A stretch of 28,226 nt of DNA from the NCBI GenBank assembly GCA_036339465.1, contig JAYZAY010000055.1, forward strand, positions 1-28,226. Direction: 5' to 3'. Numbering within the stretch: the first letter of the stretch is position 1; the number at the start of each line of letters is the position of its first letter. This stretch comes from Myxococcota bacterium. GTDB taxonomy: Bacteria > Myxococcota > XYA12-FULL-58-9 > JABJBS01. This document shows positions 21,001 through 28,226 of the stretch, piece by piece. The position numbers were made by a program.

Positions 21001-24000
21001 GCCCGATGGATCGAAGAACTAGACGGTGGAATCGACCGATTGCGGGAAATAATCGTCGGCGACATCATGGGCATCGGTGAGCAACTTGAATCTGAAATGG
21101 AAGCACTGGTTGGTCGATACCAATGTGAATGGAAAGCCTTAGTCAACGATAGCCAGCGACGCACCCATTTCTCTCATTTTTCCAATTCGTCGAAAGTGGA
21201 CCCAAATCTGGAATTCGTACAAATCAGACGACAAAAGCAACCCATAGCCTGGACCAAATCGATCGTCACCCAATCAGCTGCCAGGAACAAGAAGGAAGCC
21301 AGTCCATCCCAGGGAGCCTGGTTCAAAGCAGGGTCCATAAACGAATTGAATACAAAGGGTGGATCGTGTGTAAAAGTGGGAAATATGCAAATTGCCCTCT
21401 ATCATCTCCCGGAAAAACAGACCTGGTTTGCGACCCAGAATATGTGCCCCCATCGACGAGATATGGTTTTATCCCGAGGGCTCACAGGATACGCCGGAGA
21501 TACCCCGAAAGTTGCCTGTCCCCAGCATAAGAAAACCTTTTCCCTACTCACCGGCAAAGGTCTCAATGACCCCTCCCTGAATATCGAAACATATCCGGTT
21601 GAGATTAGAGATCAGGACATTTACGTTTTTCTTTCGAATAAAGTCGTCAAATCTTTTGATGACAGTAAAAACCGACACACCGTGGCCAGAGCTTGCGAAG
21701 TCGTCTGAGCTTCAAAAAGAACCAATAGGAAGTTTCTTCATCTAGTTCCACATATTTGAAGAAAGAACATTATTGTTCGCAGAAAAACACCAGCAAAAAC
21801 GCCCGACGCTATTGGCATAATAATTGCTCCTTATCGTGATTGATAAACGAATAAGGAGAATGCAAATGTCTGTGGGACAGGCTTCCAGAATCAGCCTATT
21901 GACTTTTGGAACACCGAAAATTCGAGCCTTCCACATATCCTGGCTCTCTTTTTTCGTGTGCTTCTTTGCCTGGTTTGGTGTTGCACCACTGATGGCGATT
22001 ATCCGGGATGAGTTTGCACTAACAAAATCCCATATTGGTAATATAATCATCGCTTCGGTTACAGGGACAACAATCGCTCGCCTTTTCATGAATTGGCTCT
22101 CTGACAAAATCGGTCCGAGAACAGCCTACACCACGTTTCTCTGTCTCGGTTCATTGCCAGTTATGGCTATTGGACTCTCCACTGATTATGAATCGTTTCT
22201 CCTTTTTCGTCTTTTCATTGGGTTCATCGGCGCTTCATTCGTCATTACGCAGTACCACACGTCCTCGATGTTCGCTCCAAACGTGGCGGAAACCGTAAAT
22301 CCAATCGCCGCTGGCTGGGGAAACTGCGGTGGTGGAGCCACTCAATTCATTATGCCCCTAATATTTTCCGCATTCATGGGACTTGGTTTTGGCGGAGCCA
22401 TGAGTTGGCGCTTAGCAATGGTCGCCGCAGGGTTTGCATGCCTGATTGTGGGACTACTCTACTATTTTTTCACCCGAGACTTACCCCAAGGAAACACTGC
22501 GCAATCAAGAAAACTCGCCCTCCAAGAGACCCCCGAGGCCGGTAAAGACAGCTTCTTAGCCACTTTGAAGGACGGTAGAGTCTGGCTCTTGTTTTTTATC
22601 TACGGAGCCTGTTTTGGTGTAGAACTCACCATCTACAATATCGCGACCATGTATTTTATGGACAACTTTGGTCTATCCCTCACCTTGGCTGGTTTGGCCG
22701 CAAGTTTATTCGGTTTGATAAACTTCTTTGCTCGTTCTCTCGGCGGTGCAATTGGAGACCGTTTTGACAAAAAAGGAGGCATTCATGCACGGGTTCTTTG
22801 GCTTTTCATTGCGGTCTTTTGTGAGGGTTTAGCCCTTATGATCTTCTCTCAGATGACGGTTCTTTCCATCGCCGTCCCTTCACTCGTCGTCTTTAGTTTC
22901 TTTGTTCAGATGAGTGAGGGGGCAACGCACTCAGTCGTACCATTTATAAAGGAGAAATCCCTCGGGTCGGTCGCCGGGTTTATTGGCGCTGGCGGAAGCT
23001 TTGGTGCCGTTTGTGCTGGTTTTCTTTTCAAGAGTGAAGCCTTGACTTGGCCACAAGCCCTTCTCATCCTAGGGGCGGTCGTAACAGCCATTTCATTTCT
23101 CACCTTTGGATTTCGATTCTCCGCCCACAAGGAATGCTCAATCCGTAAAAAACAGCGAGAACTTTCCCTGCCTGCTGGTCCGGTACCTGCGTAACGCGTA
23201 TACTAGAGGGAGATGGGATTTTGACGAGTATCGGTGATCAGATGAGCGACTATTCCAAATCAGATAATAGTGAACTCACAAAAACTTGGGACTCCAAAAA
23301 GAAGAGTTGGTCTAGTCGTCTGCCTATCATCGATTCGTATCTGAAAGAACAACAGGACTTAACCGCAGTTGAACGGTTCGCTCAATTACACGAACACGAA
23401 AGCACCGTTCTCCAGGGAAAATACTATCAAGATTTGCTGCCAACCAATCTACCGGGAGAATCGGAACAATACGCGTTCGAAGTCGATTTAGACAATTGCA
23501 CTGGCTGTAAGGCATGTGTCACCGGATGCACGAGCCTCAATGGACTAAAAGATGGAGAAACCTGGCGCGATGTCGGTTTGGTCATTGGTGGAACAGGTAG
23601 CCAAGCCACCACTCAGCATGTAACCACCGCATGCCATCACTGCCTCGAGCCTGCATGTGCAAAAGGCTGCCCAGTTAACGCCTATGTGAAGGATGAAGAA
23701 ACTGGAATAGTCAAACACCTCGATGACCAATGTATCGGATGTCAATATTGTACCCTAACCTGCCCCTATGACGTTCCCAAATTTTCAAAATCCATGGGGA
23801 TTGTTCGCAAGTGCGACATGTGTATTGACCGATTAAAAGAAGGCGAAGCCCCTGCATGTGTTCAGGCCTGCCCCACCGGGGCCATTAACATTTCAGTGGT
23901 AAACAAAAGGGACGTTCTCCGAAAAGGCGAGACTGGGATGCTTATTCCAGGCACGCCTCCTTCAAACATCACCTACCCAACAACCACCTATAAGAGCAAA

Positions 24001-27000: not shown

Positions 27001-28226
27001 TTGGCATCCAACGCCATTCGGAGGTACGCATACTTTCGCGCCGGGGAAGTGTTAGGGCCAAAGCCTTTCTGACCACCAGTATTCAGGAGGGACACATATT
27101 TATGCCCATGCATTACGAGGAAACCAATGTCCTAACACATGCCTCTTTCGACCCCTATTCACGACAACCCTCCTACAAAGCATCGGCAGTGAACATTCGA
27201 CCACTGCAACATTGGGAATAGAGAGAATATTCTAGAAAAAGATGGCATGACCACGCCACAATGACGTAGTTAAAATAATAAAAGAGAGAAAGACATGACG
27301 CAAAAAAAAAATGGGTTTGTTTGGTTCGTTGGAGCTGGTCCCGGTGCAGCAGACCTAATCACCGTACGTGGCCTCACGATACTGAAACGCGCTGATGTTG
27401 TTTTATACGACAGTTTGGTTGAACCAGAGCTTCTGGAACTTACCGATTCCAGAAAACTCCATGTGGGCAAACGTTGTGGACGACATAATTATTCTCAAGA
27501 AGAAATTTCGTCGCTCATGGTTAGGGAGGCGTGGAATGGTCACCGGGTGGTCCGATTGAAAGGCGGAGATCCTGCAGTCTTTGGCCGACTGGGCGAAGAA
27601 GTGGATGCGCTTCGAAAATATGGGATTCCATTCGAAATTATTCCTGGGGTTTCAAGTGTCACCGCCAGTGTGCTTGCATGTGGCCTATCTCTCACCAAAC
27701 GAGGAATAGCAGACTCTTTTTGTGTGGTCACAGGTAAGAAAGCCGACTCAGATGAACCACTGACGATTCCAACTTATGACCCTAGGCAGACCATCGTAAT
27801 TTTGATGGGCGTTAGAAATTTTGCATCCATCAGAAAGTCCATGTCAGAACAAGGTTACCCCATGGATATCCCCTTATGCTTTATTTCGCGCGCGGGCAGA
27901 AAGGATGCGTCCTATATTCACACAAATTTGGGTTCAGCCAACAAAAAGGTCGACGCGCTCAAAGACGCAGCACCCACGATAATCTTAGTCGGCCATATCG
28001 CGCAGGATCTAGAGACTGAAATTGATTATTTTTCCCCCGAGTCCATGGGGAATTCTCCACGTCTTTGGACTGAGCCAGACAAAACAGGAATTAAAGTGTC
28101 TTCCCCGACCTGACTCAGGATTCCGACACCTGCGCTTGGTGATAGTGACTTATGATTGTAGACACCGAGGGGCGATTCCAGAACCATATTATTTTGACAT
28201 CCACCCACGATAATGTTGCCCTAAGC

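Follow-up and report, generated by a model that had tools for sequence, protein, structure and literature searches.

Genes at the nitrate assimilation locus

The window (the whole stretch of DNA analysed, 28,226 nucleotides) carries a gene pair placed amid nirBD, narK and cobA. The pair consists of BC, a fusion of a ferredoxin domain and a membrane anchor, and NasA, a molybdenum-dependent catalytic subunit. The following features were identified at the locus:

18742..21708, + strand: NirB-NirD fusion, 988 aa, NAD(P)H nitrite reductase whose NirD domain (residues 860-962) is Rieske-like
21824..23194, + strand: NarK-family MFS nitrate/nitrite transporter, 456 aa
23221..24996, + strand: BC fusion, 591 aa, DmsB-type four-[4Fe-4S] ferredoxin domain followed by a DmsC/NrfD-type eight-helix anchor (Pfam and NCBIfam matches)
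24993..24996, + strand: ATGA overlap of the BC stop and the NasA start, read from the sequence
24993..27221, + strand: NasA, 742 aa, Nap/Nas-type Mo-bisPGD nitrate reductase catalytic subunit with three Pfam domains
27295..28113, + strand: CobA/SUMT, uroporphyrinogen-III C-methyltransferase

The NirB-NirD fusion scored 1070.9 bits with NCBIfam NF011565 (cut-off 883), matched TIGR02378 (NirD) at residues 860-962 and possesses the Pfam domains Pyr_redox_2, Fer2_BFD, NIR_SIR and Rieske_2. The transporter was assigned with Pfam MFS_1 (3.5e-29) and with TIGR00886, for which its 280.7 bits lie under the cut-off of 311.7. CobA/SUMT, which supplies sirohaem for NirB, exceeded the cut-offs of both NF004790 (253.3 bits against 198) and TIGR01469 (246.3 against 185).

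The ORF of BC begins with a TTG codon, with GGGAG situated 8 nt upstream, and its TGA stop (24994-24996) is overlapped by the NasA ATG at 24993, an arrangement that suggests translational coupling of the two genes. In the mechanical ORF list the NasA ORF reaches upstream to 24804, but homologues match the 742-aa form from residues 1-24 onward. Marine metagenome contigs with at least 99% likeness match parts of the window without indels, and one of these (X5, 24927-25261) spans the ATGA junction.

Domain structure of the BC fusion

BC aligned colinearly with E. coli DmsB and, after it, DmsC, from one end to the other. It can be divided into three parts:

23326..23466, + strand: N-terminal extension, residues 36-82, conserved and absent from E. 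coli DmsB
23467..24006, + strand: four-cluster Fe-S domain, residues 83-262, with 16 cluster Cys
24061..24960, + strand: DmsC-like eight-helix anchor, residues 281-580, defined by model helices and residues aligned to DmsC

Pfam identified Fer4_11 at residues 133-225 (2.7e-25) and DmsC (PF04976) at residues 280-578 (2.7e-15, 57 bits against a cut-off of 22.3), while the DmsB model of NCBIfam (TIGR02951) gave 131 bits, under its cut-off. The start of E. coli DmsB aligns to about residue 82 of BC. Ahead of this point, residues 1-35 are without conservation and the extension has conserved columns at L41, Q44, A49, V50, F53, Y69, L72 and P74; it was modelled as three short helices at 35-70 (pLDDT about 57-63). 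The cluster cysteines are C93/96/99/103, C138/141/146/150, C171/174/177/181 and C198/201/213/217. The genome-wide survey's note had described the pair as a 591-aa fusion overlapping NasA by 4 nt, with the 16 Cys invariant in 18 sequences; the ORFs, Pfam domains and ATGA junction were re-read with the same outcome, and all 16 Cys are likewise invariant in alignments of 77 and of 37 sequences.

The AlphaFold2 model of BC (pLDDT 84.1, pTM 0.84) has eight long helices, at residues 282-311, 314-338, 356-382, 397-425, 433-462, 468-501, 520-547 and 552-580. Foldseek matched its Fe-S part to FdnH (1.7e-8), ArrB and PsrB (TMt 0.73), and its membrane part to ActC (TMt 0.45-0.46) and PsrC (TMt 0.47). NarH is also among the fold and sequence matches.

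The catalytic subunit NasA

The three Pfam domains of NasA are Molybdop_Fe4S4, Molybdopterin and Molydop_binding; no additional NADH or 2Fe-2S domain was detected in the protein with Pfam, nor was a flavoprotein partner, C-terminal 2Fe-2S domain or diflavin domain for it found by Pfam among the genes of the window. Three features were located in its N-terminal region:

24993..25142, + strand: N-terminal extension (residues 1-50) before the FS0 motif, defined from the N-termini of 78 orthologues
25152..25259, + strand: FS0 [4Fe-4S] motif, C54, C57, C61 and C89, invariant in 37 sequences (Pfam Molybdop_Fe4S4 at residues 53-93)
25533..25538, + strand: codons of Cys181 (putative Mo ligand) and Met182, from alignment with E. 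coli NapA and FdhF

The clade consensus of the extension is GPLTRELL..PG.FGLGQVP, and homologues of lower identity align only from about residue 31-52. Cys181-Met182 aligns to the Cys-Met pair of E. coli NapA and to Sec140-His141 of FdhF; C181 is invariant and Met182 is present in 37 of 37 sequences. On the best reading of this NapA-like motif, the substrate would be nitrate rather than formate. In profile searches the best match in the PDB is Desulfovibrio desulfuricans NapA (2jim_A, 4.4e-136), and NasA lies under the curated NCBIfam cut-offs of NasA_Halo (443 against 1000) and NasC (437 against 1100), its top score being with the Fdh-alpha model (483 against a cut-off of 666).

NasA is the sole PF00384 match and BC the sole PF04976 match in the genome, which is 92.8% complete. 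A NarJ/TorD-family chaperone was not found in this genome.

Conservation of the gene pair

A scan of GTDB with BC returned 563 relatives, and neighbouring genes were counted with tblastn in the best 80 loci (42-56% identity), figures identical to those given earlier. In 79 of these 80 loci BC is followed on the same strand by NasA (mean identity 62.5%), the exception (L007) ending 31 nt past the BC match; 78 loci have a gap of no more than 600 nt, and the median gap is 53 nt. NirB-like genes are present at 60 of the 80, NirA-like genes at 8 and NarK (at least 40% identity) at 27. The survey's note had given a downstream NasA in 78 loci (76 within 600 nt, median 56 nt, 63% identity), NirB in 60 and the NRT2 transporter in 26, counts from which ours barely depart. 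Among the 78 loci with both ORFs, BC and NasA overlap by 4 nt in 20 and by 1 nt in 12 (32/78 together) and are 0-30 nt apart in 9, with 30 loci not scorable for overlap as their ORF starts were over-extended.

In a sample of the bacterium's own phylum, matches over both the Fe-S and the anchor part of BC were found in 4 of 301 genomes, one being cut by a contig end. These four genomes, and no others of the sample, have a NasA of at least 57% identity, which adjoins BC; the next best match is at 36%. A sample of Planctomycetota gave BC in 25 of 301 genomes, all 25 having, next to BC or nearly so, a NasA or NasA-like gene of at least 39% identity (one seen solely as a contig-end fragment), and BC was absent from all 35 genomes in which the best NasA match was 37% or lower. 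BC and this NasA clade thus co-occur one to one in both phylum samples. In a FastTree phylogeny with 48 rows, the 25 NasAs linked to BC fall into a single group (SH-like support 96), with the Tat-signal NapA-like proteins of the sampled genomes in a separate group.

Beyond the genes already mentioned, other BC loci carry a NirA-type reductase, an NrtA-like binding protein, an ABC ATPase and a sigma-54/GAF regulator. Seven of the best 80 loci have NirA with no NirB-like gene in the fetched stretch, so NirB is no constant neighbour; 13 have neither, many of these being short contigs. No cytochromes or nitrite exporters were noticed near BC loci. In the present genome, MenD was identified above its cut-off, and the contig with the BC-NasA pair also carries a complex I operon.

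Putative quinol site and orientation of the anchor

Residues H338, S355, E360 and R574 of BC, the last located in TM8, align to His65, Ser82, Glu87 and Arg271 of DmsC and do not vary in any of the 120 homologues. By this alignment H338, S355 and E360 are putative quinol-site residues. Mutagenesis of DmsC His65 and Glu87 is cited for quinol oxidation and binding in PMC8076601, where the Ser is also hypothesised to help coordinate quinone and an Arg in mid-membrane is noted as conserved.

The loops of the anchor carry a mean of 12.7 K+R on the Fe-S side and 1.8 on the opposite side, the Fe-S side being the higher in 120 of 120 homologues. The E. coli controls gave 3 against 5 (DmsC) and 2 against 3 (YnfH), the canonical comparison thus consisting of two proteins with loop boundaries set by hand, under a positive-inside rule that is statistical. 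The charge bias of BC is inverted relative to DmsC and YnfH in all 120 homologues, which points to an Fe-S domain facing the cytoplasm.

No Tat motif or signal peptide was found on BC or NasA in the window, and no Tat consensus on 78 NasA orthologues: a loose RR pattern occurs in four of the 78 N-termini, followed by a hydrophobic stretch in none of these four. NapA-like proteins of the same genome sample have clear RRDFLK signals. The 280-residue Fe-S domain of BC likewise precedes TM1 without a signal. As TatC is encoded in this genome, export of the complex would have been possible.

Proposed function and alternative explanations

On balance, we regard it as probable that NasA and BC constitute a cytoplasm-facing, membrane-bound quinol:nitrate oxidoreductase serving assimilation. 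A physical complex of the two is suggested by their synteny and co-occurrence, and both the quinol donor and the assimilatory role are inferred. The DmsC/NrfD-type eight-helix bundle would be inserted upside down relative to DmsC and would oxidise a quinol, which is probably menaquinol, in a site close to the cytoplasmic face. Electrons would then pass through the four [4Fe-4S] clusters of the DmsB-like domain to FS0 and the Mo-bisPGD centre of NasA, where nitrate brought in by NarK would be reduced; the nitrite would be converted to ammonium for assimilation by NirBD, CobA contributing to the synthesis of its sirohaem. The first step would thus draw its reducing power from the quinone pool, without NAD(P)H, ferredoxin or flavodoxin as the direct donor, and nitrate assimilation would be paid for from the membrane.

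The same oxidoreductase had been proposed in the survey's note, with its topology taken from missing signal peptides alone; the proposal has gained the inverted positive-inside bias in 120 of 120 homologues, the invariant quinol-site residues, the standing of NasA as sole PF00384 enzyme and the one-to-one co-occurrence. The note had also placed this electron supply outside the known Nas types, and no description of quinone-pool supply for Nas-class enzymes was found in the open-access papers and bioRxiv texts searched. According to PMC7331816, the canonical four-cluster and membrane-anchor subunits accompany none of the members of the clade formed by NasA/NasC, AioA and NapA.

The same enzyme and topology could instead serve mainly respiration or redox balancing, with nitrate taking up electrons from the quinone pool at low oxygen and assimilation as a by-product, a reading that we consider unlikely though worth weighing. 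NADH would feed complex I, quinol and BC-NasA in turn, with complex I as the site of energy conservation and NirBD detoxifying or fermenting the nitrite. A cytoplasm-facing, membrane-bound, quinol-oxidising nitrate reductase is functionally a NarGHI, the absence of a second PF00384 enzyme means that no Nar or Nap was found in the genome, complex I is encoded on the same contig, and in E. coli NirBD is a dissimilatory or detoxifying enzyme. Against this, the neighbours across loci are assimilatory (NarK or NrtA/ABC uptake, NirA-type reductase, sirohaem synthesis, sigma-54/GAF regulator), with the lack of noticed cytochromes and nitrite exporters pointing the same way. A quinol site lying towards the cytoplasm, as the inverted topology implies, would, moreover, give no redox-loop charge separation, and the named carriers include Sorangium, Gimesia and Adhaeretor, which are aerobes.

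Two further explanations dispute the function or the orientation of BC itself. It may be no quinol dehydrogenase, serving as a membrane tether and Fe-S wire from NirBD, through the Rieske-like domain, or from a ferredoxin, or it may pass electrons from another partner into the quinone pool. Four-cluster ferredoxin domains are generic electron wires, NirB-NirD is co-clustered here as NirB-like genes are at 60 of 80 loci, and Paracoccus NasC receives electrons from the NirB-like NasB together with the Rieske protein NasG, so that an NADH route might operate here too. We judge this improbable, since the invariance of the DmsC quinol-site equivalents, accompanied by that of the mid-membrane Arg, is not what a mere tether predicts; the eight-helix domain is also the best-modelled part of BC (pLDDT mostly 88-98), and the loci with NirA alone or with neither reductase tell against NirB as the donor. 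Given the established redox potentials, quinone reduction by the nitrite/nitrate couple is thermodynamically implausible. That the complex faces the periplasm like DmsABC, PsrABC and Nap, as a respiratory Nap-like enzyme reaching it by an unrecognised export route, appears very improbable: the closest solved relative of NasA is periplasmic, and all well-studied DmsC/NrfD-type complexes, SoeABC excepted, are described as P-side-facing in PMC8076601, but export signals are missing on both proteins and on the NasA orthologues, the long Fe-S domain stands unsignalled before TM1, and the charge bias strongly places the Fe-S side inside. NirBD, which is cytoplasmic, and a nitrate importer as partners also speak against a periplasmic enzyme.

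Comparison with known systems

Known Nas enzymes have in common with NasA a cytoplasmic Nap/Nas-type subunit, FS0, the Cys-Met Mo-ligand motif and clustering with nitrite reductase, nitrate transporter and sirohaem synthesis genes. Their donor classes are ferredoxin or flavodoxin (NarB/NasA), NADH (NasC-NasB or NasCA) and diflavin (NasN), whereas the constant partner of NasA here is a membrane protein with a putative quinol site. NarGHI, a nitrate reductase which supports nitrate assimilation in Mycobacterium tuberculosis, is likewise bound to the membrane and dependent on quinol, with its active site in the cytoplasm and a beta subunit that carries four clusters. However, the NarG lineage is Asp-ligated, unlike NasA, and NarI is a di-haem b anchor with a periplasmic-side quinol site and a redox loop, while the BC anchor is without haem and its quinol site is inferred to be cytoplasmic-side. 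Monomeric NapA of D. desulfuricans is the closest solved relative of NasA, and in NapA/NapGH ferredoxin-like proteins carry electrons from quinol to a Nap/Nas-type enzyme; unlike NasA and BC, NapA and NapG are periplasmic, NapA being Tat-exported, and NapH is an unrelated four-helix protein.

DmsABC, YnfFGH and PsrABC resemble the pair in the colinearity of BC with DmsB-DmsC, the retention of the 16 Cys and DmsC-aligned residues, the PsrB/PsrC fold and a quinol-to-substrate direction. They differ in being Tat-exported and periplasm-facing, where BC-NasA has no Tat signal and an inverted charge bias, in having separate B and C subunits, and in their catalytic subunits, NasA belonging to the Nap/Nas/Fdh clade and not to the DmsA or PsrA lineages.

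The nearest precedent is SoeABC of Allochromatium vinosum and Aquifex aeolicus, which is also built from Mo-bisPGD, four-cluster Fe-S and eight-helix NrfD-DmsC-like modules. Its soluble subunits are hypothesised, in PMC8076601, to lie on the N-side (cytoplasm), with an inverted anchor and a quinone site near the cytoplasmic face, so the architecture of BC-NasA may not be wholly without parallel. SoeABC oxidises sulfite and reduces quinone, an electron flow opposite to that proposed for BC-NasA, and SoeA belongs to another MopB lineage, grouped as bSreA/SoeA (PMC10100899). Compared by description, SoeB and SoeC are treated as separate subunits in PMC8076601, in contrast to the single B and C polypeptide here, whose catalytic subunit is Nas-type. 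The best reading is therefore that the proposed quinol supply and the anchor partner would be new for a Nas-type enzyme, an inverted DmsC/NrfD-type anchor having already been hypothesised for SoeABC.

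Organisation of the nitrate assimilation cluster

Eight features of the window are relevant to the analysis:

1501-11563 (+), complex I operon with Pfam matches for nuoA, B, C, D, H, I, J, L, M and N
11814-13223 (-), 469-aa protein with an APP1-type phosphatidate phosphatase domain
13537-15483 (-), 648-aa protein whose only Pfam match is a C-terminal helicase-associated (HA) domain
18742-21708 (+), upstream of BC, NirB-NirD fusion of 988 aa (NF011565, 1071 bits against a cut-off of 883)
21824-23194 (+), upstream of BC, NarK-family MFS transporter
23221-24996 (+), BC, the fusion of a DmsB-type iron-sulfur domain with a DmsC/NrfD-type anchor
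24993-27221 (+), NasA, the Nap/Nas-type molybdoenzyme
27295-28113 (+), downstream of NasA, CobA/SUMT (NF004790, 253 bits against a cut-off of 198)

The genome-wide survey's note had described BC as a two-domain protein whose gene overlaps that of NasA by 4 nt, and this account was reproduced in each of its parts. BC is a frame of 591 codons with a TTG start and a GGGAG motif 8 nt upstream, in which Pfam Fer4_11 covers residues 133-225 (2.7e-25) and DmsC (PF04976) residues 280-578 (57 bits, cut-off 22.3), while the ATG of NasA lies at 24993 within the ATGA that closes BC. The 742 aa of NasA were found to contain Molybdop_Fe4S4, Molybdopterin and Molydop_binding as their only Pfam domains. The top NCBIfam model for BC was DmsB (TIGR02951, 131 bits, under its cut-off).

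NasA is clustered in the window with genes for nitrite reduction, nitrate transport and sirohaem synthesis. With a GC content of 0.479, the nitrate cluster does not stand out from the genome (0.489, sd 0.016), and its composition thus bears no mark of recent transfer. Contigs assembled from three other marine metagenome runs agree with parts of the stretch at 99% likeness or more with 0 indels, one of them spanning the ATGA junction. At position 23111, near the 3' end of narK, an A instead of the window's T was present in all three independent marine DNA runs covering the site. A look-up of RNA data for the stretch returned none; one run guessed to be RNA supplied a single contig over 26830-27165, which was not counted as evidence of expression. 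The genes of the 648-aa and 469-aa proteins are placed between the nuo operon and the nitrate cluster; ORFs 16042-16437 and 15597-15977 matched no Pfam family, and an Rfam search of the window returned no match.

Predicted fold and clusters of BC

Alignment of E. coli DmsB followed by DmsC with BC extended over the full length with no break between the two, the DmsC N-terminus HEWPL corresponding to HWPLIF at BC residue 281. The 16 cysteines that the survey had assigned to four cluster motifs were invariant in 77 sequences and in 37 drawn from the homologue loci. The fold that it had predicted was likewise obtained with AlphaFold2 from the 77-sequence alignment (pLDDT 84.1, pTM 0.84), with a ferredoxin domain leading into eight long helices (residues 282-580). 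The stretch of residues 1-33 was disordered in this model, and a conserved N-terminal extension (residues 35-70) was modelled at lower confidence as three short helices.

Comparison of the model to the PDB using Foldseek matched the first half of BC to the beta subunit of formate dehydrogenase-N (FdnH, 1.7e-8), and also to the beta subunits of arsenate reductase (ArrB), polysulfide reductase (PsrB; TMt 0.73), perchlorate reductase and NarH; a profile search of PDB sequences was concordant for this iron-sulfur part. The second half matched ActC of alternative complex III (TMt 0.45-0.46) and PsrC (TMt 0.47). The gene pair comprises two of the subunits by which a complex iron-sulfur molybdoenzyme (CISM) is recognised, namely an FS0-bearing Mo-bisPGD subunit and a four-cluster subunit with 16 Cys, and a candidate for the third, a membrane anchor that exchanges electrons with quinones, which is identified by PF04976 over its gathering cut-off, eight model helices and invariant residues aligned to the DmsC quinol site.

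NasA as a probable nitrate reductase

NasA scored under the curated NCBIfam cut-offs for two models, NF041323 (443.1 against 1000) and NF047855 (436.6 against 1100), and its top NCBIfam score was to the formate dehydrogenase model TIGR01591 (Fdh-alpha, 483.3 against a cut-off of 666). Since the NasA/NasC cut-offs were missed and a formate dehydrogenase model ranked highest, the active-site motif was examined. In alignment, Cys181-Met182 of NasA takes the place of Cys-Met in E. coli NapA and of Sec140-His141 in FdhF, the Met being present in 37 of 37 aligned sequences. The closest solved structure by sequence was the monomeric NapA of Desulfovibrio desulfuricans (4.4e-136). The Cys-Met motif, the kinship to NapA and the gene context indicate that nitrate is the likely substrate.

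The FS0 cysteines C54, C57, C61 and C89 were invariant in 37 sequences. Before the FS0 motif, the NasA clade carries a conserved extension of about 45 residues (GPLTRELL..PG.FGLGQVP), which is not matched by homologues of lower identity. NarG has an N-terminal tail that runs along NarH, and by analogy the extension of NasA may possibly have a docking role.

Homologous loci and their neighbourhoods

The survey's scan of GTDB species genomes was repeated, and its counts held with small shifts. There were again 563 confirmed relatives of BC. Planctomycetota and Myxococcota supply most of the best 80 loci (42-56% identity), with several complete Sorangium genomes and Adhaeretor mobilis among the sources. 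A NasA orthologue (mean identity 62.5%, tblastn) lies on the same strand downstream of BC in 79 of these 80 loci, within 600 nt in 78 (median gap 53 nt); the sole exception, L007, stops 31 nt past the BC match. NirB-like genes were present at 60 of the 80 loci and NarK at 27. Both ORFs were called in 78 loci; of these, 20 show a 4-nt overlap of the ORF ends and 12 a 1-nt overlap, and 30 were unscorable because in GC-rich DNA the ORF starts extend too far upstream.

NirA-type genes were found at 8 of the 80 loci, seven of which have no NirB in the stretch examined. Further recurrent neighbours were an NrtA-like binding protein, an ABC ATPase, a sigma-54/GAF regulator, a CysJ-like flavoprotein and an alginate-export-type porin. 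The neighbourhood across loci is consistently one of nitrate assimilation. All-against-all clustering of neighbour ORFs, which suffered in high-GC loci from noise due to long spurious ORFs on the antisense strand, revealed no further constant partner and no chaperone, and no NarJ/TorD-type chaperone was found in the genome. NirB and NirD form one protein in most loci, as they do in the window, and are separate (831 and 117 aa) in L120 (1825-4702).

At least 8000 protein clusters (90% identity) scored, and relatives occur in at least 563 GTDB species genomes. Near-identical DNA was found in marine metagenomes of several studies, and the names in the matches include the cultured carriers Gimesia, Adhaeretor, Symmachiella, Polystyrenella and Sorangium. 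In databases the fusion goes by generic names, namely DmsC/YnfH family anchor, DMSO reductase chain B and formate dehydrogenase iron-sulfur subunit.

Co-occurrence of BC and NasA

The genome, which is 92.8% complete, gave a single match to PF00384 (molybdopterin oxidoreductase), NasA, and a single match to DmsC, BC. No other catalytic subunit that BC could serve was found. Apart from BC itself, the iron-sulfur domain of BC matched the genome at one place only (G000:C46:13180-13608 (-), locus L082), within a 1063-aa frame with no PF00384 match; the frame length and its fold-search neighbours suggest ActB of alternative complex III.

Among 301 sampled genomes of the same phylum, a match over both the iron-sulfur and the anchor part of BC was found in four (G000, G061, G078 and G103, one of them cut by a contig end). 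NasA at 57-65% identity was present in exactly those four, directly downstream, the next molybdoenzyme in the sample being at 36%. BC was identified in 25 of 301 Planctomycetota genomes. Twenty of these have a NasA of 57-65% identity directly downstream, and in one more the start of NasA (58.6% over 169 aa) is reached before a 2-kb contig ends. The remaining four (L117-L120, from G430, G530, G534 and G395) form a divergent subfamily with BC at 31-35% identity (blastp) and a NasA-like gene at 39-41% alongside; an MFS gene lies between the two in one of the four, and NirBD or NirA clusters are present in all. BC was found in none of the 35 Planctomycetota genomes whose best NasA-like match is at or below 37%. 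A joint absence of the NasA and BC N-terminal extensions from the divergent subfamily was considered and rejected, as both are present there in diverged form.

A FastTree phylogeny was built from 48 catalytic subunits (21 of the main type, four divergent, 21 from the same phylum without BC, and E. coli NapA and FdhF), using 18 of the 37 rows of the NasA alignment and dropping five rows of low coverage. The 25 BC-linked NasAs grouped together (SH-like support 96) in two subgroups, both of them fully supported, the divergent subfamily being its own branch beside the main clade, and this group stood apart from Tat-bearing NapA-like, FdhF-like and other Nas-like proteins. This is a quick tree and related genomes are not independent of each other; even so, BC and NasA have been inherited as a unit. 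Synteny, gene overlap and one-to-one co-occurrence point to a putative physical A-B-C complex.

Two apparent natural fusions were rejected. P0195 (1157 aa), seemingly NasA joined to BC, is a frameshift artefact with out-of-frame Arg/Pro/Gly-rich sequence between and after its parts. P0194, of 2189 aa and listed in a eukaryotic proteome set, merges MFS, NirA, BC and NasA into one gene model, and is most likely a bacterial contig within that set that was mis-called as one gene. A third, single database protein, P0196 (1174 aa), has a NirA-like sirohaem nitrite/sulfite reductase at residues about 1-640 and, from about 700 to 1174, a BC-type module that shares 32% identity with BC of the window. 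No second such fusion was found among the best 150 matches of an exhaustive phmmer search, and in its nearest relatives the parts are separate proteins (P0204, 73%; P0205, 58%). It may be that BC modules feed sirohaem reductases as well; alternatively, P0196 may reflect a lost stop codon.

Predicted membrane orientation and putative quinol site

The B subunits that pair with DmsC and YnfH face the periplasm. Lys and Arg residues were counted in the loops of BC family proteins, using the eight helices as boundaries, with E. coli DmsC and YnfH as controls in the same alignment. The mean count was 12.7 in loops on the iron-sulfur side versus 1.8 on the opposite side, the former being richer in 120 of 120 proteins, as compared with 3 versus 5 for DmsC and 2 versus 3 for YnfH. 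This bias is inverted relative to DmsC, as expected for an upside-down anchor with its iron-sulfur domain in the cytoplasm. The B-facing side of DmsC is placed in the periplasm in a review of the NrfD family (PMC8076601), and BC would depart from this canonical DmsC/YnfH orientation, in which both termini are also periplasmic.

A cytoplasmic orientation had been proposed by the survey from missing signal peptides only, and now draws on the charge bias as well. The signals are indeed missing from BC, in which an iron-sulfur domain of about 280 residues precedes the first helix, and from NasA. Among NasA orthologues a loose RR pattern occurred in four of 78, none with a hydrophobic stretch after it, and no Tat consensus was found, while NapA-like proteins of the same genome sample carry clear RRDFLK signals. 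TatC is encoded in the genome, so that export machinery is present and the missing signal is informative.

Four DmsC residues, His65, Ser82, Glu87 and Arg271, correspond to H338, S355, E360 and R574 of BC, all of which are invariant in 120 of 120 family members. As far as the available text of the review extends (PMC8076601), mutagenesis cited there implicates His65 in quinol oxidation and Glu87 in quinol coordination, a quinone-coordinating role is hypothesised for the conserved Ser, and the Arg is a conserved mid-membrane residue. From these alignments, the quinol site seems to be kept in BC.

MenD was identified in the genome over its cut-off, with no match to the MqnA family. Together with the complex I operon, MenD makes a menaquinone-type pool plausible. 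With nuoE, F and G missing between D and H, the operon is of the 11-subunit type that lacks the NADH-oxidising module. The operon has a nuoK-sized gap at about 6356-6650, and its GC content (0.542) exceeds the genome mean by more than 3 sd.

Proposed mechanism and alternative explanations

The reading that we favour, and hold to be probable, is that NasA and BC form a cytoplasm-facing, membrane-bound quinol:nitrate oxidoreductase that serves assimilation. Quinol would be oxidised at a cytoplasmic-side site of the inverted BC anchor, and electrons would pass through four [4Fe-4S] clusters to FS0 and then to molybdenum. Nitrate imported by NarK would be reduced to nitrite by NasA, and nitrite to ammonium by NirBD. 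Established potentials permit only the direction from quinol to nitrate. If the quinol protons are released in the cytoplasm, BC-NasA would not itself be electrogenic, a property more in keeping with assimilation or redox balancing than with respiration; the reducing equivalents would nevertheless have been routed via complex I beforehand.

The main rival keeps the same machine and has it used chiefly as an electron sink; we regard this rival as unlikely. It is improbable that BC, with its invariant residues aligned to the DmsC quinol site, is a mere tether, or a wire for electrons from NirBD or ferredoxin. None of the known Nas electron-partner domains (NADH flavoprotein, 2Fe-2S, ferredoxin/flavodoxin, diflavin) was found in NasA; NirB-NirD is encoded in the same cluster and could in principle donate, and a free ferredoxin may do so too. 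An enzyme facing the periplasm would agree with canonical DmsC, and we give it very little credence given the charge bias and the missing signals in a genome that encodes TatC.

A broader joint reading, which we consider rather doubtful, is that the inverted anchor releases quinol protons to the periplasm, making nitrate assimilation electrogenic, and that BC is perhaps a general quinol-fed hub for assimilatory reductases. BC keeps R574 and the acidic E570 and E573, and thus could release protons periplasmically, as mid-membrane Arg and acidic residues are linked to proton pathways in the available part of the NrfD review (PMC8076601). The occurrence of BC beside NirA-type reductases in some loci, along with P0196, is the basis for the hub, under which the whole path from nitrate to ammonium would be quinone-driven in some lineages.

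Should the favoured reading of a quinol:nitrate oxidoreductase be true, cells that assimilate nitrate with electrons passed on from NADH via complex I and quinol could conserve energy at the complex I step. The cost assumed for growth on nitrate would then change, as would the interpretation of surveys that use nasA as a marker gene.

Comparison with known systems

The textbook view of assimilatory nitrate reductases in bacteria is of soluble enzymes that draw electrons from ferredoxin/flavodoxin or NAD(P)H; on the favoured reading, the quinone pool would add a fourth route of electron supply. In the open full-text literature, no NasA with a DmsB/DmsC-type module was found described, no paper contained the phrase 'membrane-bound assimilatory nitrate', and no experimental study of any BC-NasA member was found. 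The available portion of Wells and colleagues (PMC7331816) describes the clade of NasA/NasC, AioA and NapA as having no member with canonical four-cluster or membrane-anchor subunits. Such a pairing is not mentioned in the available portions of these authors' later survey and of a 2025 Nap phylogeny, and the words 'fused', 'fusion', 'assimilatory' and 'Nas' are absent from the NrfD review (PMC8076601).

The nearest precedent for BC-NasA is SoeABC, by its description in the accessible text of the same review (PMC8076601), and no Soe model was among the NCBIfam matches. The two would share soluble subunits on the N-side and an inverted anchor, proposed for BC from the Lys and Arg bias and the missing signals and for SoeABC by hypothesis (PMC8076601, available portion). 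BC would then be the second inside-out anchor of the NrfD/DmsC type. However, the catalytic subunit of SoeABC is of the sulfite-oxidising SoeA type, whereas NasA groups with Nap, Nas and Fdh and lies in a nitrate assimilation context. Electron flow is opposite in the two systems, and the B and C subunits, which are separate proteins in SoeABC, are fused in BC. BC-NasA can thus be described as a CISM-type enzyme with a SoeABC-like inversion, a Nas catalytic subunit, and B and C subunits fused into one protein.
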